Notes: generated by a model not told the origin, from the sequence alone. A DNA stretch of 64,000 nucleotides from GCF_056746865.1 NZ_CM163382.1, one strand, 5' to 3'; numbered from the stretch's first letter, positions 40,031-50,874 are shown. Numbers and translations: made by a program.

Positions 40031-41062
40031 TTACTCGACACCTACAATTTTACAAGCATATTTTTTAGCATTGAACGCCAACTCGCTACGTTTATGATCT
40101 GCACTAACAAGTAATGAAAGAGCTTTTATCCATATATGTGGGTCATTCTCCAGCAAGATTCCATTTACATTTTGTTCAATGAAGTCACTATATGGTACAC
40201 AATTACTATATAAACCTACAGCCCCCATTCTGACAAAATCATAAAATTTTACGGGGCCGCGAGCCGAATTAAAGTCAGAGTCAAGTAATGGTGCTAACCC
40301 GATATCCAGATGATGAGTCTTGGTATACGCAAGATAATTTTGCCAACTCATCGGATGCAGTACTGAAACTCTTGGTAGGTCACGATAATATTTATAAATA
40401 TCATGCTCGCCAAAAATTTCAAAGCTGGCACGGGGACATTCTCCCAATACCCCCTCTACGATTTGTCTCAACCAATATTTTTCTTCCCGATGAGAACTTG
40501 AGCCATGATAAGCGATTTTTACTGATCGATGTGTTTCAATGAGTGCCAGTGACGGTTTAGCAGAAACAATCTCCGGGTTAAGATGTGCATATTTATTAGC
40601 CAAATAGGCAGTTGAAACCCAAATGTTATCACAATATTGCGTAATCCATCGATGCTGAGCCGCCGACCTCCTTATTATCTTGGTACGATACTCTTTTGGT
40701 AACGTAGATAGTGCAGTCGGGTCAAACAGGTCGTCATCCATAAAATAAACAATTCGAGAAAACCTGTCGTTATATCTTTCTATGTGCTGTTGCCATTTTG
40801 GGGAGATGAATCTAATGACGACAAGGGCAGATCCTCTAGGAATAAATATATCAGTGGATGCTAATGTGTCGATAAAATGACATTCTGCATCAGGAAACCG
40901 ACTTATAATAGCCGATTCAAAATAGGCTAATGTAGGTGATTTTCCCTCATGTAATATAAACAATCGTTCAAAGTTAATCTCAGAGCTTTGCTGACTTCTA
41001 TAACTCTGTTTATTTAATTTACGATAAGGCTTAAATAGTTTCCTGCGAATTAATTCATCCAT
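40031..41062 (-). CDS. hypothetical protein, putative glycosyltransferase of the capsule serotype region
   Basis: 343-aa ORF, AT-rich, first gene after a 0.7-kb AT-rich spacer; no firm motif recognised. Confidence 0.4.
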   Translation of the reverse strand: MDELIRRKLFKPYRKLNKQSYRSQQSSEINFERLFILHEGKSPTLAYFESAIISRFPDAECHFIDTLASTDIFIPRGSALVVIRFISPKWQQHIERYNDRFSRIVYFMDDDLFDPTALSTLPKEYRTKIIRRSAAQHRWITQYCDNIWVSTAYLANKYAHLNPEIVSAKPSLALIETHRSVKIAYHGSSSHREEKYWLRQIVEGVLGECPRASFEIFGEHDIYKYYRDLPRVSVLHPMSWQNYLAYTKTHHLDIGLAPLLDSDFNSARGPVKFYDFVRMGAVGLYSNCVPYSDFIEQNVNGILLENDPHIWIKALSLLVSADHKRSELAFNAKKYACKIVGVE

Positions 41063-43071
41063 GGCAATACTATATTAGGAGCTCTACTTAAAGAGAAATC
41101 AGGACGTTCATAACTCAAATTTTGGTTGTAGGCTGGATCGTGTTTAAGTGCACATGCCCATCGTTTTTTCATATAGCGCAACTCAGATTTCGCTCGTATC
41201 TGCTGTTGTTTTGATACATCTTTACCACGGGAAATAGACTCATGATGATACAATTCAGCGAAGGGAGTCCAGATTACTCTCCAGCCAGCATCTCGAACTC
41301 TGAGACAATAATCTACGTCATTAAAAGCTATCGGCAAATTCGTTTCATCAAGTCCTCCGAGCGCCAGATATAACTCTTTATGAGTCAATAAACAAGCTGC
41401 AGTCACAGCTGACAGCTCTTGGGCACTAACAGCCCTACGCTGATATCCAGGATCGTTAGCTGACAAACCATTATGAAAATGATCTGCACAACCGCCAGGG
41501 CCGACAGCATCGCCTGCATGCTGAATCAAGCCATTTCCGTAATACAGCTTTGCTCCTACCACACCCACGCCGGGGCGTAATAAATGAGAAACCATTTCAT
41601 CCAGCCAGTCAATACTGATTACCTGAGTATCATTATTCAGCAAACATATCATATCTCCATGTGCGTTTCTCACTGCCAGATTGTTGATGGCTGAATAGTT
41701 AAACGGTTGATCATAAGAAATCACCCTAACGCCATAAACCTGTTCGATATGAGCAAGATAAGCAAGCGTCTCCTCCTCATCGCTCTGATTATCCATCACT
41801 ATGACTTCCATATTGGCATATTGCGTCTTTTGTATCAGGCTTTCGATACAAGGGCGTAAATGAGCAATACCATTTCTAGTAGGGATAATCACTGAAACCA
41901 ATGGCAATTGCGCTGGCAACGGCCAGCGCCAACGACATACACCATGAGGTGCTGCCTCAATGCTCACTCCTGATGGCAGTAAATCTTCTTTATCTTTCAG
42001 CGACTCAAAATCATCCGAAATCAACGCTCTTGCAGGCAAATGCATCATCAATGATGGAATATGGACTATCTGTTTCGGTTCACACATCTTTGCCAACTGT
42101 AGCCACCACTGATGACATGCCGCCGAATCAAAGGGAACACGGCCAGCACCATGTTCACGCCACAAACCACACCAACTAATATAGTTTTGGCTCTGTAGCA
42201 GCGTTTCATTCCAATCAGGTTTAAAGTTGGGAGAGTGACGTTCGCCTCTCTCGTCAAGCAGATCGTGATCACCGTATATCCATAAACAATCAGGATTCTG
42301 GCGTAACTGGTGGGCAACCCAAAATAAGGCGCCGGGCGAAACCACTGCCCCTACAGGCAACACCCACTGCCATTCGCCGCCTGACTGACTGGAGATTTCT
42401 GGATATGCACTATGCTCCTGCAGACTTATATTGCTTGCCGGATAACAGAGTGCCTGAATACTCTCCAGGGTCTTGTTGCGGCTCTGTTCATCCCCAACGC
42501 CAACAAGATGCAAACAGAAACGTGGTAATGTGCCCCAGCGAGCCAGCTGGCGCTTAATCAGCTTGTATTCGGCGGGTTCAAGGGTGTCGAAGTCTGCTAG
42601 CCACTCATCATAGCTATTGAGTGGCTTATCATCGCGAACTCTGCTGACAAGTTGGTAAGCCTGCTGCAAGTCCGTGAGCCACAAATGCCATGAAAGGCCT
42701 AACCTTTTGCGTCTGGACTTCGTTAAGCGTCGGTAAAAAGGCAAAACCCGGCGCAATCGACGCCAGAGACTCTCGGCGCGTGATACACAACAAAGCTGAG
42801 CAATCTCAACATTACACTCAGCGCCCTTAGTACTTGCCAGCAAAGACAAATGACTAGCTCCCGTGGGTAGATAAACCAGCTCCAGCAACGTGCCTCGACG
42901 AGTGACCGGCAACATCTGTTCATGCCATATTCCTTGTCCGCATTGCCAGCGCAGAAGAGTTTCACCTCGAGTTTGAGTCGTCGACACGCGCCCCCGAATC
43001 AGAAGCCAACCAGCATGAAGAGAAAACGAGTCTGGCAATGTCAGAGGCTGCCAATCGCGATAGCTACACAT
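41050..43071 (-). CDS. family 2 glycosyltransferase with N-terminal extension
   Basis: 673 aa; GT-A signature …VSVIIPTRNGIAHLRPCIESL…VIVMDNQSDEE…. Confidence 0.7.
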   Translation of the reverse strand: MCSYRDWQPLTLPDSFSLHAGWLLIRGRVSTTQTRGETLLRWQCGQGIWHEQMLPVTRRGTLLELVYLPTGASHLSLLASTKGAECNVEIAQLCCVSRAESLWRRLRRVLPFYRRLTKSRRKRLGLSWHLWLTDLQQAYQLVSRVRDDKPLNSYDEWLADFDTLEPAEYKLIKRQLARWGTLPRFCLHLVGVGDEQSRNKTLESIQALCYPASNISLQEHSAYPEISSQSGGEWQWVLPVGAVVSPGALFWVAHQLRQNPDCLWIYGDHDLLDERGERHSPNFKPDWNETLLQSQNYISWCGLWREHGAGRVPFDSAACHQWWLQLAKMCEPKQIVHIPSLMMHLPARALISDDFESLKDKEDLLPSGVSIEAAPHGVCRWRWPLPAQLPLVSVIIPTRNGIAHLRPCIESLIQKTQYANMEVIVMDNQSDEEETLAYLAHIEQVYGVRVISYDQPFNYSAINNLAVRNAHGDMICLLNNDTQVISIDWLDEMVSHLLRPGVGVVGAKLYYGNGLIQHAGDAVGPGGCADHFHNGLSANDPGYQRRAVSAQELSAVTAACLLTHKELYLALGGLDETNLPIAFNDVDYCLRVRDAGWRVIWTPFAELYHHESISRGKDVSKQQQIRAKSELRYMKKRWACALKHDPAYNQNLSYERPDFSLSRAPNIVLPWMN

Positions 43072-43174: not shown

Positions 43175-44143
43175 TCAAACCATCCATTTCTTCATTTTTT
43201 TTTTGAACCAAGAACCAGTAGGAATAGGTTCAACTGCTGATAACTCAGTCAACTTCACACTTAATCGTTCCATTTCAGCTTTTACTTGTCCTGAGAATGC
43301 GGCAGCGAGAAGGCACTCTTCATCATTACGATCATGTGCCTTGAAATAATCTTTATGCTTCACTCGATTAGCAGTAGCAGCACTACCACGCAGATGCTTG
43401 CCCAACAAGAATTCCTCAAGTGATTTAACTGCATAGTGATTTACCCTGACACCGCTCCAAATCACTTCAGCACTAACTCCTTTACCATGCCTCGGGTGCA
43501 GAATCAAATCACGACCTAACACATCAATATATCGACCATAACGCAAATCAGCATAATGCGGATTATGAAAGCGGTTAACTCGTTCTGGTTTGACCACACT
43601 TTTGAAGTTATGATGAACGTTAAAGGGTTGCGGGGCACGATAGGTAAAACGTTCAATAACCAACCCCTCTTCAGCAAACAGTTCACCACTAGAACCAAAA
43701 TTTGCCCAATTCAATGCAATAGCGCTGACACTCTCATCCTGAAACTTTTCAGAAAAAAAATCTGACAATTTGGTATCCGATTCAAGTGGCAATAAAAATT
43801 CATCAGCATCTATAAATGCAAGCAGGTCTATGTCTCTGGGACAGCTACGTAAAATATGTTCATATGCAGGTAATTGTGGCTTTTGATTCACCAAAATCGG
43901 TTGATCGAACATCTTCACAATACCTAAGCGAGCGAGGGACAATAGCAACTCTCGACTACCATCACGACTACCATTATCTGCAATAATAAACCCATCAACA
44001 CCTAATACTCGATGGTAAGCAATCCATTCAAGTAAACTTGAATACTCATCCTTGATAATAGCGGCTATATAGAGTTTCAAATTATCATCCAGCAAAAATG
44101 TATCAATGCCGATACTATCGGCATTGATACTCAATTTTATCAT
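43175..44143 (-). CDS. putative glycosyltransferase (GT-A-like), paralog of the N-terminal domain of 47216..48445
   Basis: 322 aa; …AAIIKDEYSSLLEWIAYHRVLGVDGFIIADNGSRDGS…AFIDADEFLLP… parallels …AILKNEYPFIVEWIAYHMALGINDIYIADNISSDGS…AFIDADEFISP…. Confidence 0.5.
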   Translation of the reverse strand: MIKLSINADSIGIDTFLLDDNLKLYIAAIIKDEYSSLLEWIAYHRVLGVDGFIIADNGSRDGSRELLLSLARLGIVKMFDQPILVNQKPQLPAYEHILRSCPRDIDLLAFIDADEFLLPLESDTKLSDFFSEKFQDESVSAIALNWANFGSSGELFAEEGLVIERFTYRAPQPFNVHHNFKSVVKPERVNRFHNPHYADLRYGRYIDVLGRDLILHPRHGKGVSAEVIWSGVRVNHYAVKSLEEFLLGKHLRGSAATANRVKHKDYFKAHDRNDEECLLAAAFSGQVKAEMERLSVKLTELSAVEPIPTGSWFKKKMKKWMV

Positions 44144-44586
44144 CAGGCAGGAGAAAAAAATAACCCGTCCAACCAGGTGATCACCCCATCTGATTCCAGC
44201 CCAATAATTATTTTGGTAGAAAATGGAATACTGATATCAAATCCGCACCGAAGTTTTTGATGTTTTTCAGGTGGTTGTTTTAGTATAGCTGAAATAACAT
44301 CAGGCCGCTTTGTATTGAAAGGAAAACTGTATGTCATATGATCAATTTTAACAGCAACATGGGAATCTGCTTCCCCTTCAGCCACTAACCACCCCCGAAG
44401 TACAATCCGGCCATTGACGATCTTTAGTGGTTGTTGTTCTGATGGCGAATCAATATTCCAATATAATTGACCGCCAGACTTGACGAGTGGCGATTTTGTG
44501 AGGGTATAAATAACAGCCATACGATTCCTTCTATTTGAAATATTGCTCAAATAACTCAGACTATCTCCAGATTGCCTTTCAAGCAA
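44143..44586 (-). CDS. small protein carrying the recurring ~100-aa region-2 module
   Basis: 147-aa ORF (start may be the internal MAVIYTL…); shares the G-W…RPDV…CGF pattern with the C-terminus of 47216..48445 and the N-terminus of 45929..47209. Confidence 0.4.
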   Translation of the reverse strand: MLERQSGDSLSYLSNISNRRNRMAVIYTLTKSPLVKSGGQLYWNIDSPSEQQPLKIVNGRIVLRGWLVAEGEADSHVAVKIDHMTYSFPFNTKRPDVISAILKQPPEKHQKLRCGFDISIPFSTKIIIGLESDGVITWLDGLFFSPA

Positions 44587-44713
44587 GATAATCCCAAGTT
44601 TTTATGGGATATACATAACTATGGATACAACCAAGAAAAATGATTTTGCCTCAATGGAAGAAATTACGGTAATAGAATTCCATTATCCCATTTACAATCC
44701 ACTGCTACGTTAT

Positions 44714-45910
44714 TTAATCAGCCCCAAAAAGATCTCTGGTATAAACCTTTTCGGCTACATCGACTAATTCAGCAGCCATGCGATTACAGAGAATAACATC
44801 GCTCAGCGCTTTAAACTCAGCCAGTTCCCGAATCACTCGGGAATTGAAGAATGTATCTTCATGAATAGTCGGTTCAAAGACCACTACCTCAATACCCTTG
44901 GCCTTAATACGCTTCATGACTCCCTGTATCGCAGAAGAGCGGAAATTATCTGAGCCAGCCTTCATCACCAAACGATGGATGCCCACCACCTTAGGTTTAC
45001 GACGCAATACGCTATCAGCAATAAAGTCTTTGCGAGTGCAATTAGCATCGACAATGGCGCGGATCAGATTGTTGGGTACCTTGTTGTAGTTGGCCAGCAA
45101 CTGCTTGGTGTCTTTGGGCAGGCAATAGCCACCATAACCAAATGAGGGGTTGTTATAATGGCTACCGATACGCGGATCCAAGCCAACCCCTTCGATAATC
45201 TGACGACTGTCCAAGTCATGCGACTGAGCATAGGTGTCCAACTCATTGAAATAGGCCACCCGCATTGCCAGATACGTATTAGCAAACAACTTGATGGCCT
45301 CCGCCTCGGTGCTGCCCGTTAGCAGTACCGGAATGTTCTGCTTGATCGCCCCTTCTTGCAACAATTCAGCAAATCGTTTGGCCCGCTCACTACGCTCACC
45401 CACCACAATACGGGAAGGGTATAGGTTGTCATACAGCGCCTTGCCCTCACGCAAGAACTCGGGAGAGAAGATCAGATTATCGGTGCCTAACTCACTACGC
45501 AGCCGCTCGGTAAAGCCTACCGGAATGGTAGACTTGATCACCATCACTGCATTAGGGTTGATACTGATCACATCGCGAATCACCCACTCGACTGAGTCGG
45601 TGTTAAAGTAGTTGGTCTCGGGATCATAATCGGTGGGGGTAGCAATAATCACAAATTCGGCCGCCTCATACGCCTCGAATTTATTCAGCGTCGCCTTAAG
45701 GTTCAGATGATTGTTGGCCAGATAGGCCTCCAGCTCTTTATCTGCAATGGGGGATTGACGGCGATTAATCAGTTCGACTTTCTCTGGTAATATATCCAGT
45801 GCAATTACCTGATGATGTTGAGCTAATAGCACTGCAATAGAAAGACCTACATAACCAGTTCCAGCTATAGCTATTTTCATGTTATAAAATACCTGCTCAA
45901 TTAAGTTCAC
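44714..45910 (-). CDS. ugd: UDP-glucose 6-dehydrogenase
   Basis: 398 aa; [21 protein letters not shown]… NAD-binding motif and catalytic …GGYCLPKD…. Confidence 0.85.
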
Positions 45911-45928
45911 ATATATTTTTTACAAGTA

Positions 45929-47209
45929 TTATGAGGGTGCAGATTCAGTATTATATAATTTACTCATTTTTTCATGATAAAATAAAAGCGAAGGGCAAGA
46001 ATTATACTCAAAATTATTAATCTTTTTCTTGTATATTTTTCTAACAATTTCAGAAGTAAAACAGAAATTGTTTTTAGGTGGCTTCACAATAAATCTAGAA
46101 GCGACCTGAATAATTATTTTTGATGGCTTTTCATGAGCCACCACATCAAGATCCACACTCGCACCAGAAAATACATGGATTACTCTTTTATATTTATTTA
46201 CAAAATATGGAAGCATATTTATAGAATAAGAATCACCAAAAAAAACCACGACACTATCATCTATTTTGCGATTATTTTCAAATACTCTCACCCATCCTCT
46301 ATTATTAACCCCGTTATCATAAACAATATAATTATCAATACCAGAGAAATCAGCCTTCAATATATCCTGCGAAATCGGAGGGGTTGTCTTAATTCCTAAA
46401 TCGCCATAACTCCTTTTAATGTAAAAAGGGAAAATAGAATTATCGAGGACCGTGTTGTTTTTATTTAAGATATTATCTATATATTTAGCCACCTGCAATG
46501 CAGCAAAATCAGACCAGTGCGTATCAACTTTAGAATATGAGCTATCACCGATATCTCTTAATATATCTAAAGGATAAACTATATCAGTACAAATGGAGAG
46601 TAACTGTTCAACTGGTGTCTCTGGCGATTTTTTAAACGGATAGTATGATGACAATACATTCTCTTTGGCTGGAGCCAAACAAAAAACATATTCAATCCGT
46701 TGATCATTCATATATTTCCGAATAAAATCTAGATAGTTCTTCCAAACAGAAATATCATCATTTGTAATTTTTTTAATTCCAATAAACTGCTCTTTACTCT
46801 GATTGGTATCATGATCCAAGAATAAATACCCATTGTGTCCAAAAAGCACTTTTTGAGGAGGAGTTATATCTACTCTCGCTATTACATAATCAACATTATT
46901 AATAGTTGTTCCAATACTAAACGACTCCAAACTAGTAATAGCATAACTAAAACCACACATAGTATCACTAACATTTCCATTGAAATGTCTTACTACGTCT
47001 AATCTGGGTGTATTATAGTCAAGAATTAATTTCTCTCCATTCTTAACTATATATATATTATTCTGACAACCTTTATAGAGTAGCCATCCCGATAAATGAA
47101 TCGCAGAGCAATTTGACTTAAAATAACTACATGTCCGAGGACTATCAATTGAAAACTTGAGCCCGGTAATATCTGGTCTTATAACAGATAGTTTGATATC
47201 ATATTTCAT
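45929..47209 (-). CDS. hypothetical protein with recurring N-terminal module and possible SGNH/GDSL-type esterase or O-acyltransferase region
   Basis: 426 aa, very AT-rich; …VVVFFGDSYSINM… resembles a GDS(L) block. Confidence 0.4.
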   Translation of the reverse strand: MKYDIKLSVIRPDITGLKFSIDSPRTCSYFKSNCSAIHLSGWLLYKGCQNNIYIVKNGEKLILDYNTPRLDVVRHFNGNVSDTMCGFSYAITSLESFSIGTTINNVDYVIARVDITPPQKVLFGHNGYLFLDHDTNQSKEQFIGIKKITNDDISVWKNYLDFIRKYMNDQRIEYVFCLAPAKENVLSSYYPFKKSPETPVEQLLSICTDIVYPLDILRDIGDSSYSKVDTHWSDFAALQVAKYIDNILNKNNTVLDNSIFPFYIKRSYGDLGIKTTPPISQDILKADFSGIDNYIVYDNGVNNRGWVRVFENNRKIDDSVVVFFGDSYSINMLPYFVNKYKRVIHVFSGASVDLDVVAHEKPSKIIIQVASRFIVKPPKNNFCFTSEIVRKIYKKKINNFEYNSCPSLLFYHEKMSKLYNTESAPS

Positions 47210-47215
47210 TAAATT

Positions 47216-48445
47216 TTAAACCAATTTTGAAACTAATTCTTCATTGAGTGGAAATTCTAAACTAACTAATCCAGCCTGATTTAAAGTATATATCTGAACG
47301 CTTGAGATAAGTTGTGTAGGAAGCGACAACGAACATATAAACCCGCACCCAATTCCATTACCAATCCCAGCTTTTTCTACATCAGGCCGATCATAAAATG
47401 ATAGTGAGTCTGGGCGTATTAAAAAAGAGTTATTTATAACCATTACAATACTACTACATGGTTTTTTATCATTATCTACTGCCCAACCTTTTAGAACTAT
47501 AGCACGTCCATCTTTTTTAATTGTATCAATAAATCCAACCCCCATACTTTTAGTAGTCTTATAAAGTGGTTCACTTCTGCTTTCTATGAGCGGCTGATAT
47601 CCACAATCAAGCAATTTCTCATTAATGGTTGCGATTTGACATTTTACTTTTCTCAGAAACCATAATGGAATATGTTGCTCAATATTATTCAAATCATGAT
47701 TTTTAAAAAATTGCAGATTTCTACCGAGACTATTTTTTAGTGTTGTAGCTCTACCTCGAGCGACCTTTTTATTCAAGAATTCAGCCTTTGACTTAATTAC
47801 ATAATGATTAAGTCTGATAACTGACCAGTCAATCACCTCACTTATTCCATCATAACTATGATGTTCTTCTCCACTTGGCATAACAAATTTCTTATCTGAA
47901 TTAATAATAAAAGCATGGGGTGTTGGTCCTGCTTTGATAACATCAGAAACACGAACTATTGACTTATAATGCCTATTAACAGGATGCAGATCAGCAGCTC
48001 TCTTAACGAATCGTTCTATAACAAGACCGTCATCAGGTAAAATTGAATGAGATGAGCCATATACAGCCCAGTTGAGTGATATTGCACCAATCGCCTGATC
48101 ATTTAATAGCGGCATCAGTTTGTTTAAACCATCTTCATAGTCATTTGGTGAAATAAATTCATCTGCATCAATAAATGCAACCCATCTATCTTTATCAAGC
48201 ATTGACAATATTTTATTGTACGCCCCCAATTGTGGGGGAATACCATCTTGTGTCGGATAGTCAATCCTTTTGATAATATTCGCTTTATCTAGAAAATATA
48301 AAAGCTCACTACTTCCATCACTACTAATATTGTCGGCAATATATATATCATTAATGCCAAGAGCCATATGGTAAGCAATCCACTCAACAATGAATGGGTA
48401 TTCATTTTTTAAAATTGCACCTATTGAAAGCATCGCTGTTATCAC
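47216..48445 (-). CDS. putative glycosyltransferase (GT-A-like) with C-terminal recurring module
   Basis: 409 aa; N-terminal domain paralogous to 43175..44143; C-terminal …IVLKGWAV…RPDV…CGF…. Confidence 0.5.
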   Translation of the reverse strand: MITAMLSIGAILKNEYPFIVEWIAYHMALGINDIYIADNISSDGSSELLYFLDKANIIKRIDYPTQDGIPPQLGAYNKILSMLDKDRWVAFIDADEFISPNDYEDGLNKLMPLLNDQAIGAISLNWAVYGSSHSILPDDGLVIERFVKRAADLHPVNRHYKSIVRVSDVIKAGPTPHAFIINSDKKFVMPSGEEHHSYDGISEVIDWSVIRLNHYVIKSKAEFLNKKVARGRATTLKNSLGRNLQFFKNHDLNNIEQHIPLWFLRKVKCQIATINEKLLDCGYQPLIESRSEPLYKTTKSMGVGFIDTIKKDGRAIVLKGWAVDNDKKPCSSIVMVINNSFLIRPDSLSFYDRPDVEKAGIGNGIGCGFICSLSLPTQLISSVQIYTLNQAGLVSLEFPLNEELVSKLV

Positions 48446-48456
48446 TCTACTTAAAA

Positions 48457-50874
48457 TTAAATGGAGAAGTCTTCTCTATCTTTAGATAGGTTTGGACTGT
48501 AGAAGGGATCGAGTTCGAGATGTTTACCCCATTTGCTTTTCATAAAGTTCACTTCCCTGGCAAATCTGGCTATTTTCTCCGGGGAATCTTCGGCACCTCG
48601 ACTAATTGATTCATAGTGGTAAAGCTCGGCATAAGGCGTCCAGAGATTACGGTACCCCGCTTCGCGTACTTTCAGACAGAAGTCCACATCATTAAAAGCA
48701 ACATGCAAATTCTCTTCATCCAACCCGGCAACTTCCTCATAAATATTTTTGCGAATAAGCAGGCAAGCAGCCGTGACGGCCGAGAGAGTTTGTGTCAACA
48801 ACAAACGGCTGAAATAACCCGGATGATGGCGAGGGTACTGTTTATGAGAGTGTCCCGCTACACCACCAATACCGAGAATAACTCCGCCATGTTGTAAAGT
48901 ATCATTACTGTAATAGAGCTTGGCCCCGACACAACCAATCTCTGGTCGCATGCAGTGACTCACCATCTCGGTCAGCCAATCCGGGTTGATTACCTCGACA
49001 TCATTATTGACCAAGCCGATAATGGCCCCCTTGGCGTGACGAACGCCAAAGTTGTTGATGGCCGAGTAGTTAAAGGGGTGGTCATAGCGCAATACTCTGA
49101 CCCGGCTGTCTTCCTGCTGGATCTGGGCAAAGAAATCGAGAGTCTCCTGCTCCACGCTGCCATTATCGAGAATCAGGATCTCGAAATGGGTATAGGTACT
49201 GCGATCGATGATGCTACGCACCGCAGTTTCGGTTAGAGCACGACGATCCCGAGTAGGAATAAGCAAACTAACCAGTGGGGCTGGTTCTGAAATAGGGTAA
49301 CGTACCCGATAGGTGTTGGGAACCAACCCCGCCTCAACCGTAACCTCAGGTTGCTGCTTAGAAAAATAGTCGCGTAGCGCTTTGATGCCAGCCTCCGTGG
49401 TGTAGCTCTTCTCGCCAGAAGCCAAAGCTGTAGAGCCCTCAATGGTACGCCAGTGGTAAAGCACACGGGGAATGTGAACTATCTGCTCTGCAGCTACATG
49501 AGGCAGACAACGCAGCAGCAGATCCTGATCCTGACTTCCTTCTACTCCCAAACGGAATCCCCCAATCTGTTGCAGCAGAGAGCGACGATAGACCCCGAGA
49601 TGCGAGACATAGTTTTGCGAAAAGAATAAATCTGGATTCCAATCGCTCTTGAAATGAGGATCAAAACGCTCACCGCGGGCATTAATTTTATCTTCGTCAC
49701 TGTAAAGGATCTGGGTATGAGGCTGCTCACAAATAGCCTGAGCCATAAATAGCATAGCATGCTCTGGCAACACATCATCATGATCCAACAGAGCTACGAA
49801 ATCCCCTTTTGCAATTTCGAGAGCACTGTTGGAAGCAGCCGAAATATGACCATTGTGCTTTCGGTAGACAACTTTGATTCGGCTATCCTTGGCCTCGTAT
49901 TCGCGCAGTACGCGTTGCACATGTTCTTTTGGCGAACGATCATCGGCAATACAGAGTTCCCAATGGGGATAGCTTTGAGCCAGGACAGAATCCAGACAGG
50001 CACGCAAGTAGATCTCCGCTGGATTATAAACAGGAATCACAATAGATATAACTGGAGGGTGAGTCATACTGGCAAGCATCAGACTCACCTCTTTGTTGCC
50101 AGGCAACGAAGGTAATTCCACCGTTTCTATCCATTCCTCATAACCGACAGAAAACGGGGTAACGCTGAACGTTTCGTTATAGAATGCCTGCAGGCGCTCT
50201 ATTGACATATCGCCATTGTCCATCAATATGGATTTTTTGATTTTTTCTAGCGGCATGTCACGATAGCTTTGGTGTTCTTTTTGAATGCGAGCCAATAGTG
50301 CAGACTCAACTACTTTCACATCAACAGCTGCTATTTCAAACTGATTAATTGCAAATGTTGCTGCCTGTTCTAATGGATCAAATCGTAATGCAACAAGAGG
50401 CGATTCCAGATAGAACAAACGACTGACGCTGACCGCTCGTTTATATGGCAACGTTACTGTTTCAAACTCATTGAACCCTTTACCTGTATCCAAATATAAC
50501 TTAGCTAATCCTTGCTTTGGTTGGCAATTAATAGAGATATTAAATTGATACCATCCCTTGCTAATATTTGAGAGCTGCTCCAAATCAATAATGAAAAATG
50601 GATCATTTCCCTCTGCAACCCAACTTTGTGAATTATCTATATCTATCGAGAGCTGATTTGTTGCCAGATAGGGCAGCACAACTGTATTTTGCATTTTACT
50701 CACTGCAGGAGAAACGTCCCATGCTTCGCATGGTTTCCTACCGAGTAACATCCCATAACGCTTAAAATGTTCTCTTGCTGACAACCCGGTCTGTTTCACA
50801 TCCAAATAGTTATGCAGATACCAATGTTCATCAAAGTGAGCTAGCAACTCGTCTTGGTGATTTTTAACCATCAC
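48457..50874 (-). CDS. two-domain family 2 glycosyltransferase
   Basis: 805 aa; two GT-A signatures (…ISIVIPVYNPAEIYLRACLDSV… and …VSLLIPTRDRRALTETAVRSI…); N-terminal FDEHWYLHNYLDV… motif shared with the C-terminus of the 909-aa protein. Confidence 0.7.
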   Translation of the reverse strand: MMVKNHQDELLAHFDEHWYLHNYLDVKQTGLSAREHFKRYGMLLGRKPCEAWDVSPAVSKMQNTVVLPYLATNQLSIDIDNSQSWVAEGNDPFFIIDLEQLSNISKGWYQFNISINCQPKQGLAKLYLDTGKGFNEFETVTLPYKRAVSVSRLFYLESPLVALRFDPLEQAATFAINQFEIAAVDVKVVESALLARIQKEHQSYRDMPLEKIKKSILMDNGDMSIERLQAFYNETFSVTPFSVGYEEWIETVELPSLPGNKEVSLMLASMTHPPVISIVIPVYNPAEIYLRACLDSVLAQSYPHWELCIADDRSPKEHVQRVLREYEAKDSRIKVVYRKHNGHISAASNSALEIAKGDFVALLDHDDVLPEHAMLFMAQAICEQPHTQILYSDEDKINARGERFDPHFKSDWNPDLFFSQNYVSHLGVYRRSLLQQIGGFRLGVEGSQDQDLLLRCLPHVAAEQIVHIPRVLYHWRTIEGSTALASGEKSYTTEAGIKALRDYFSKQQPEVTVEAGLVPNTYRVRYPISEPAPLVSLLIPTRDRRALTETAVRSIIDRSTYTHFEILILDNGSVEQETLDFFAQIQQEDSRVRVLRYDHPFNYSAINNFGVRHAKGAIIGLVNNDVEVINPDWLTEMVSHCMRPEIGCVGAKLYYSNDTLQHGGVILGIGGVAGHSHKQYPRHHPGYFSRLLLTQTLSAVTAACLLIRKNIYEEVAGLDEENLHVAFNDVDFCLKVREAGYRNLWTPYAELYHYESISRGAEDSPEKIARFAREVNFMKSKWGKHLELDPFYSPNLSKDREDFSI

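Follow-up and report, generated by a model that had tools for sequence, protein, structure and literature searches.

The group 3 capsule locus in this stretch of Escherichia coli DNA encodes three proteins that carry copies of one domain of about 100 residues, which we read, at roughly even confidence, as a non-catalytic accessory domain that binds or positions the acceptor polymer. The window, that is, the whole stretch analysed (NZ_CM163382.1 of GCF_056746865.1), is 64,000 nucleotides (nt) long, and the genes concerned lie between positions 43,175 and 48,445. One copy of this domain, here called the module, stands alone as the product of a small gene (gene A). The second is N-terminal in an AlgX-like protein (protein B), and the third is C-terminal in a glycosyltransferase (GT) of the GT92-like type (protein C). 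Gene A is coupled to gene D, which encodes a GT92-like protein without a module. All three copies are encoded on the minus strand; their coordinates and those of the neighbouring features are collected in Table 1.

The three segments are copies of one domain

The copies are about 20–25% identical to one another. Smith-Waterman comparison with 2000 shuffles gave z values of 7.0 (A-B), 6.3 (A-C) and 4.0 (B-C); no shuffle reached the real score for the first two pairs, and 11 of the 2000 did so for B-C. The corresponding BLASTP E-values were 3e-4, 1e-3 and 0.37. This pairwise similarity alone is weak, and homology was settled by profile searches against the 476 stop-to-stop open reading frames (ORFs) of the window. 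A hidden Markov model (HMM) built from 107 C-terminal regions of C homologues retrieved A (E = 1.2e-8) and B (E = 1e-5), with the next ORF at 0.44. An HMM built from repeats of Firmicutes proteins alone retrieved B (8e-11), A (4.5e-10) and C (7e-10), with the next ORF at 0.22. Neither profile found a further copy among the 476 ORFs. On these sequence comparisons, we conclude that the three segments are homologous and represent one domain.

The signature of the module is D…GW…RxDV…G[F/Y], and all of its residues are present in A, B and C. In an alignment of 57 modules from the three families, G43, W44, R72, D74 and G93 (numbering of A) were invariant, and D24 and F94 were conserved in at least 90%. 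Among 922 repeats of the Firmicutes type, GW, R-x-D and G were each conserved in 99–100%, V after R-x-D in 89%, the D column in 73% and F in 66% (F or Y in 97%).

It is hardly credible that the segments are non-homologous and resemble one another by chance or through low complexity. The weakness of the B-C pair and the lack of a match to any curated family might be cited for this explanation, but two independent profiles retrieve exactly A, B and C from the window and nothing else, and the five columns invariant in 57 diverse sequences are conserved likewise in 922 unrelated repeats. It is refuted also by hhalign, which aligned the capsule-type modules with the Firmicutes repeats (probability 99.5%, E = 1.5e-22).

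A reading of this DNA made from the sequence only had described a common segment of about 100 residues in a stand-alone ORF, at the N-terminus of B and at the C-terminus of C. The profiles bear out both the segment and its three positions, and the pairwise and profile alignments that it proposed as a check gave similarity above the chance level. Two details need correction. The stand-alone ORF is real, but its length of 147 residues is that of the maximal ORF starting at TTG, and a conserved ATG at 44520 gives 125 residues. The motif written as (R/T)-P-(D/R)-x-D-V was slightly out of register, its invariant core being R-x-D-V.

Relatives of the module and their distribution

When 1.84 billion cluster representatives were searched exhaustively with the module profile (HMMER), 7,057 proteins matched at E ≤ 1e-3, and 2,181 of these at E ≤ 1e-10. 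The best 150 of the 7,057 were long proteins in which 4–10 copies follow one another head to tail, repeating every 110 residues or so. Nine of them were scanned against Pfam; most carried Amidase_3, Glucosaminidase, GH25, NlpC/P60-CHAP or CAP domains, and one carried GT2. Named carriers include an N-acetylmuramoyl-L-alanine amidase of Vagococcus lutrae and proteins from Clostridium metagenome-assembled genomes. Pfam labels these Firmicutes repeats Big_7 (PF17957), a bacterial immunoglobulin (Ig) domain; in one carrier (P0149; 7 stretches, E = 9e-48), the Big_7 match at residues 554–636 corresponds to the module stretch at 550–644.

Big_7 (gathering score 24.1 bits) was matched neither by A, B and C at E ≤ 1 nor by the 57 capsule-type modules at E ≤ 10. 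Scans of the capsule-type modules against Pfam, NCBIfam and PHROGs gave nothing significant, and the C-terminal domain of Wzt (PF14524) was not among the matches of the 57 modules at E ≤ 10. Judged from these profile comparisons, the capsule copies form a divergent subfamily, so far unannotated, within a known superfamily, and we do not file them under Big_7, since they fall outside Pfam's own limit for membership. The sequence-only reading, which could assign no family, was right in that the capsule copies match no curated model, but the module is Ig-like and is linked through intermediates to the Big_7-labelled repeats. Among sequences in the PDB, the sole match was the C-terminal domain of EfAmi1 (8C4D), with E = 2.8e-4 for the capsule profile and 5e-7 for the repeat profile.

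Architectures with a single copy were observed in homologue lists and in eleven loci besides the window's own match. The module is N-terminal in a 328-aa protein of a wzm/wzt locus (L003) and in a 385-aa protein of Pseudomonas fulva. A gene for a GT92-like protein plus module is found in a kps-like locus of Comamonas, and a fusion of GT92, module and FkbM methyltransferase occurs among the homologues. In all, at least four enzyme types have acquired the module at one terminus or the other. The occurrence of C-terminal, N-terminal, FkbM-fused and stand-alone copies supports the earlier suggestion that it is shuffled between enzymes of one pathway.

Predicted fold of the module

AlphaFold2 modelled A, with the 57-sequence alignment as input, as a beta-sandwich (predicted local distance difference test [pLDDT] 85.2; predicted template modelling score [pTM] 0.78). 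The model has eight strands and two short helices that start at the RPDV motif, and we read the predicted fold as Ig-like (E-set type), a beta-sandwich into which a helical segment is inserted. Foldseek searches against PDB and BFVD gave nothing at E < 1e-3, and the best TM-scores were about 0.4–0.5. The family has a common Ig-like architecture and no solved representative.

Strand periodicity suggests that the Trp of I-x-L-x-G-W faces away from the main hydrophobic face. Its probable place, shared with the V of RxDV and the F of GF, is below the helical insert; the signature would then be structural. The invariant residues of the signature probably determine the fold and leave specificity to the variable loops.

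Proteins C and D are GT92-like transferases with and without a module

The catalytic parts of both proteins scored above the Pfam cut-offs, with 52.8 bits (C) and 51.6 bits (D) for PF13704 and 39.2 and 51.1 bits, respectively, for PF01697. D and the catalytic part of C are paralogues (38% identity over 281 residues, E = 1e-50). We found 535 homologues of C, and the module was present in all but eight of the 120 listed. They are mostly about 405–420 aa long and come from Aeromonas, E. coli, Burkholderia, Pseudomonas, Comamonas, Azotobacter and Rhizobium; some homologues, a minority of about 290–315 aa, have no module, and others run on into an FkbM methyltransferase or a different domain of 200 aa. 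In 93 full-length homologues, G320, W321, R353, D355 and G368 were invariant. Mean pairwise identity within the family was 26% for the module and 47% for the catalytic part. By this comparison, the module appears to evolve about twice as fast as the catalytic part, as expected for an accessory domain that adapts specificity. Against PDB sequences, the C-family profile found nothing but a marginal match to GmaR.

The AlphaFold2 model of full-length C was compact (pLDDT 93.1, pTM 0.91), and the linker between the domains had a pLDDT of 86–94. This pTM and the confident linker suggest that the module is packed on the catalytic domain rather than flexibly tethered to it. A simple split of a C-type gene into A and D was considered and rejected, because the module lies upstream of D but is C-terminal in C.

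Hydropathy analysis detected no signal or transmembrane segment in A, B, C or D, which fits polymer synthesis at the cytoplasmic face. D ends in a basic-aromatic tail, WFKKKMKKWMV (43175-43210, minus strand), that is not present in C. The last 40 residues of D have an isoelectric point (pI) of 9.9 and a net charge of +4, and the tail could be an amphipathic membrane-association segment.

Gene A encodes the stand-alone module

The length of 125 residues is the same in RefSeq, which annotates A as a hypothetical protein, and in the Aeromonas homologues. The TGA stop codon of gene A (44143-44145) overlaps the ATG of D in the sequence TGATG. Queried with A alone, a word-indexed homologue search yielded close relatives only, of 124–138 aa, in E. 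coli, Aeromonas and Plesiomonas. Gene A is carried by 57 E. coli genomes. The ratio of nonsynonymous to synonymous substitution rates (dN/dS) was 0.22–0.23, from which we conclude that gene A is under purifying selection. The A-D order was kept in E. coli GN25, 203740 and CU532-9, which have different serotype genes, and in Aeromonas veronii. Because this order recurs across loci and the gene is under purifying selection, gene A is part of a conserved block of module, GT92, GT2, GT and rml genes and not of the serotype-specific part.

In the related locus of strain RS571, gene A (L011 14001-14377) is disrupted by a 1-nt deletion near codon 38 and by an in-frame TAA; the annotation gives a 61-aa fragment. 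That locus has an IS5 between the last transferase gene and rfbB. Among the matches listed, two more genomes had the same 377-nt match to gene A with 88.9% identity as RS571.

In published descriptions of group 3 loci, the small gene appears only as a related hypothetical gene (PMC10433991). The locus description in a transposon-sequencing (TnSeq) paper on K96 does not include the small module gene and is hence uninformative on its function. The conserved linker block of group 3 appears to hold a fourth gene, namely the small module gene.

Protein B, a putative polysaccharide O-acetyltransferase of the AlgX type

RefSeq names B an alginate O-acetyltransferase AlgX-related protein. It scored 16.1 bits (E = 0.009) against Pfam ALGX, for which the cut-off is 26.5 bits; a Rhizobium homologue (P0027) with 31% identity to B scored 33.5 bits (E = 4.4e-8). 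B contains the motifs VDTHWSD and FFGDSYS, and DTHW is present in every aligned homologue. We take DTHW (Asp-x-His) and GDS (Ser) to be the catalytic motifs of the AlgX/AlgJ type. The N-terminal module is retained in the Rhizobium homologue, and a distant homologue (P0028) has a hydrophobic N-terminus instead. A PDB sequence search with B gave no match.

No signal peptide or transmembrane segment was found in B, its maximal Kyte-Doolittle score over 19 residues being 1.13 versus 2.54 for a KpsM-like control. Since it is without a signal peptide or membrane anchor, B would be a cytoplasmic member of a normally periplasmic type of acetyltransferase. The annotated genes of the locus include no acetyl carrier of the MBOAT type. 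In Rhizobium sp. RAS22 (L008 1-11260), the B homologue directly follows a set of prophage tail genes, which encode a tape measure protein, an NlpC/P60 protein and a GpJ-like protein 1114 aa in length. This homologue could be carried by the phage and serve to modify surface polysaccharide.

Comparison with known accessory domains

The module is comparable to the accessory beta-sandwich domains of carbohydrate-active enzymes, and several known systems bear on this analogy. The Big_7-labelled repeats of Firmicutes resemble the capsule copies in their signature residues, their length of about 100–110 residues and their predicted fold. They differ in being extracellular and arranged in arrays of 4–10 beside amidase, lysozyme or NlpC/P60 domains, whereas the capsule copies are single, cytoplasmic and attached to biosynthetic enzymes, and have no Big_7 match at E ≤ 10.

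A case with a single copy is EfAmi1, a prophage N-acetylmuramoyl-L-alanine amidase of Enterococcus faecium, in whose C-terminal domain (about residues 186–324) GW, RPDV and GF align with the module. Like the capsule enzymes, it joins a single module copy to an enzyme whose substrate is a glycan polymer; unlike them, it is a lysin that works on the cell wall from outside. The C-terminal domain was proteolysed and is missing from the crystal, and was proposed, by prediction only, to be a new carbohydrate-binding module (CBM; PMC10167349). Many unknown cell-wall-binding domains have been noted in enterococcal phage lysins (PMC10630273).

Accessory beta-sandwiches that recognise glycans are found both outside and inside the cytoplasm. 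AlgX is an SGNH-like alginate O-acetyltransferase with an appended beta-sandwich CBM, and this combination makes it a working analogy for B. AlgX is, however, periplasmic and its module, of a different family, is C-terminal, whereas B has an N-terminal module and no signal peptide; no sequence relation between the accessory domains of the two proteins was found. The C-terminal domain of Wzt, the O-antigen ABC transporter, is a cytoplasmic beta-sandwich that recognises the finished glycan. It demonstrates that cytoplasmic glycan-binding modules exist in ABC-transporter-dependent pathways, but it is part of a transporter ATPase and not of biosynthetic enzymes, and the capsule modules do not match its family.

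Role of the module

In the model that we favour, the module would be the companion of three cytoplasmic enzymes that work on the polysaccharide as it grows. In B and C, the rigid docking on the catalytic partner would be in cis; A, which is translationally coupled to D, the GT92-like transferase of the conserved block, would dock in trans. The docked module would extend the surface that holds the acceptor polymer, and each enzyme would thereby recognise the nascent lipid-linked glycan and remain on it. That A docks on D is suggested by the fusion in the paralogue C, and glycan binding by the family context together with the precedent of AlgX.

Sequence analysis alone cannot choose between substrate binding and a scaffold, the two roles that had been suggested for the module at the outset, and it is the family context that favours polymer binding: the tandem arrays on peptidoglycan hydrolases and the copy at the C-terminus of a prophage lysin. 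Binding or positioning of polymer is further suggested by the independent recruitment of the module to transferases, an acetyltransferase and methyltransferase fusions, by its faster evolution relative to the catalytic part, and by the fusion/fission relation between C and the pair of A and D.

A number of observations weigh against this reading. For the family as a whole, glycan binding is argued from architecture and analogy, and the structural neighbours of the module are as much Ig and FN3 domains as CBMs. The modules (pI 6.2–8.4) do not have the net positive charge that would suit an acidic polymer containing glucuronic acid. The signature is invariant in extracellular and cytoplasmic contexts, which argues for structural residues and indicates no binding site. 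The rigid docking is derived from pTM alone, and the compactness of C, the coupling of A with D and the occurrence on three enzymes would be equally compatible with contacts between proteins. Gene A is a pseudogene in RS571, the sole allele of that type examined. Finally, the GT92-like genes without a module on two short contigs (L005 and L006) have no adjacent stand-alone copy. A rule that such genes always neighbour a stand-alone module was tried and fails on these contigs, and in the wzm/wzt locus mentioned above the module is on the 328-aa protein.

The main rival, which we consider somewhat unlikely, is that the module is a domain for protein-protein docking or oligomerisation that gathers the transferase, acetyltransferase and linker-building enzymes into a membrane-associated capsule assembly complex; its candidate partners are the module itself, the 909-aa methyltransferase/coiled-coil protein of the locus and the KpsC/S/M/T machinery. 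The presence of the same domain on three enzymes of one pathway and the translational coupling of the stand-alone A to its partner enzyme would be in keeping with such a complex, and the compact model of C implies protein-protein contacts at least in cis. Ig and FN3 domains, prominent among the structural neighbours, also speak for it, and the teichoic-acid transferase TarS reportedly trimerises through its C-terminal Ig-like domains. A common partner is nonetheless unlikely for copies with so little identity, unless it contacts the invariant signature, and the data point to no partner. Moreover, 4–10 tandem copies on secreted wall hydrolases and a position at the C-terminus of a prophage lysin are typical of wall-targeting repeats rather than of domains that assemble complexes. 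We regard as improbable that the module is an inert Ig-like spacer or stabilising cap, free of ligand and spread by shuffling, with A as a dispensable remnant. Tandem Ig-like domains do often serve as stalks, the signature looks fold-determining, gene A has decayed in RS571, and many GT92-like homologues of about 290–315 aa manage without a module. These points are opposed by the purifying selection on gene A (dN/dS 0.22), by its retention directly upstream of the GT92 gene across K loci and in two genera, and by the independent recruitment to at least four enzyme types, which is unlikely for an inert piece.

Should the module bind polymer, this would account for how soluble enzymes of the cytoplasm reach the lipid-linked chain, and glyco-engineering or lysin design would gain a portable recognition domain; if it merely docks or stabilises, the result is routine domain annotation. 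A name and boundaries can be given to a domain that is now hypothetical or unannotated in polysaccharide loci of E. coli, Aeromonas, Comamonas, Pseudomonas and Rhizobium, and the same definition covers one class of the unknown cell-wall-binding domains of enterococcal lysins. A broader proposal is speculative and, we think, unlikely. The GW-RxDV-GF domain would be an unrecognised and widespread glycopolymer-binding family (more than 7,000 clusters), in effect a new CBM family, which works both outside cells, in wall hydrolases and phage lysins, and inside them, in the enzymes of ABC-transporter-dependent capsule and O-antigen synthesis. A would then serve the GT92-like transferase that begins the conserved rhamnose-containing linker as a detachable subunit for acceptor recognition, and would thus be an overlooked fourth component of the '3-GT block'.

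Capsule locus and gene neighbourhood

The window is 99.9% identical to E. coli chromosomes such as that of strain PF9285, and the entire 5.3-kb stretch with the modules is present in only 5 of 5,426 complete E. coli genomes. The group 3 capsule locus adjoins gsp/yghD genes and is transcribed on the minus strand in the order kpsD-M-T-E, region 2 and kpsC-S. Region 2 comprises, in order, genes for a 909-aa S-adenosylmethionine (SAM) methyltransferase with a long coiled coil, an 805-aa double GT2, C, B, a UDP-glucose dehydrogenase, A, D, a 673-aa GT2 and a 343-aa transferase, and rfbBDAC. In the chromosomal subgroup 3B cluster 'TBA_3', the genes described are udg, a hypothetical gene, wckU-V-W and rmlBDAC, and wckU-V-W is the '3-GT block' proposed to build the linker (PMC10433991). 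The organisation of the window fits this cluster, and we conclude that it is a subgroup 3B (TBA_3-like) kps locus. In ABC-transporter-dependent pathways, the whole polymer is made at the cytoplasmic face (PMC10433991).

The G+C content is 31–33% over genes B and C (46000-47999) versus 39–51% in the adjacent kilobases, and gene B is entirely missing from the related RS571 locus. The low G+C content and the lack of B in RS571 suggest that B and C form a separately acquired serotype cassette.

Table 1. Positions of the module copies and of neighbouring features in the window
Feature	Position	Strand	Description
Gene A, stand-alone module	44143..44520	-	125 aa; ATG at 44520 with AAGGA ribosome-binding site; RefSeq 'hypothetical protein'
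Gene A, domain envelope	about 44182-44472	-	
Gene A, signature	GW 44389-44394, RPDV 44296-44307, CGF 44239-44247	-	GW 43-44, RPDV 72-75, CGF 92-94 in 125-aa numbering
Module copy B	46862..47170	-	residues 14-116 of the 426-aa protein 45929..47209; two window profiles
Copy B, signature	GW 47084-47089, RLDV 46994-47005, CGF 46949-46957	-	residues GW 41-42, RLDV 69-72, CGF 85-87
B, catalytic part	45929..46861	-	AlgX-related, SGNH-like, putative polysaccharide O-acetyltransferase
Module copy C	47219..47575	-	residues 291-409 of the 409-aa protein 47216..48445; two window profiles
Copy C, signature	GW 47483-47488, RPDV 47378-47389, CGF 47339-47347	-	residues GW 320-321, RPDV 353-356, CGF 367-369
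C, catalytic part	47576..48445	-	residues 1-290; GT-A, Glyco_tranf_2_4/GT92-like; PF13704 5.8e-14, PF01697 7.8e-10
Gene D	43175..44143	-	322 aa; GT92-like, WckU-type, first gene of the 3-GT block; module-less
UDP-glucose dehydrogenase-like gene (ugd/udg)	44714..45910	-	between B and A; Pfam UDPG_MGDP_dh N-terminal, central and C-terminal domains; no module
673-aa GT2	41050-43071	-	
805-aa double GT2	48457-50874	-	
FDxxWY motif, about 35 residues	50907-51119 and 50713-50838	-	BLASTP E 3e-8 and 3e-4

The locus contains two paralogous pairs of enzymes, the 805-aa and 673-aa GT2 proteins (34% identity over about 700 residues, E = 2e-111) and the 409-aa and 322-aa GT92-like proteins. In the variable part these genes are arranged as GT2-GT92(+module), and in the conserved block as module-GT92-GT2. 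A separate motif of about 35 residues, FDxxWYxxxYxDVxxxGxxxxxHFxxxG, is present in two copies within the C-terminal residues 830–900 of the 909-aa methyltransferase/coiled-coil protein, and the neighbouring 805-aa double GT2 has one N-terminal copy (residues 13–54). This motif may be a contact between a terminator/ruler protein and the polymerase.

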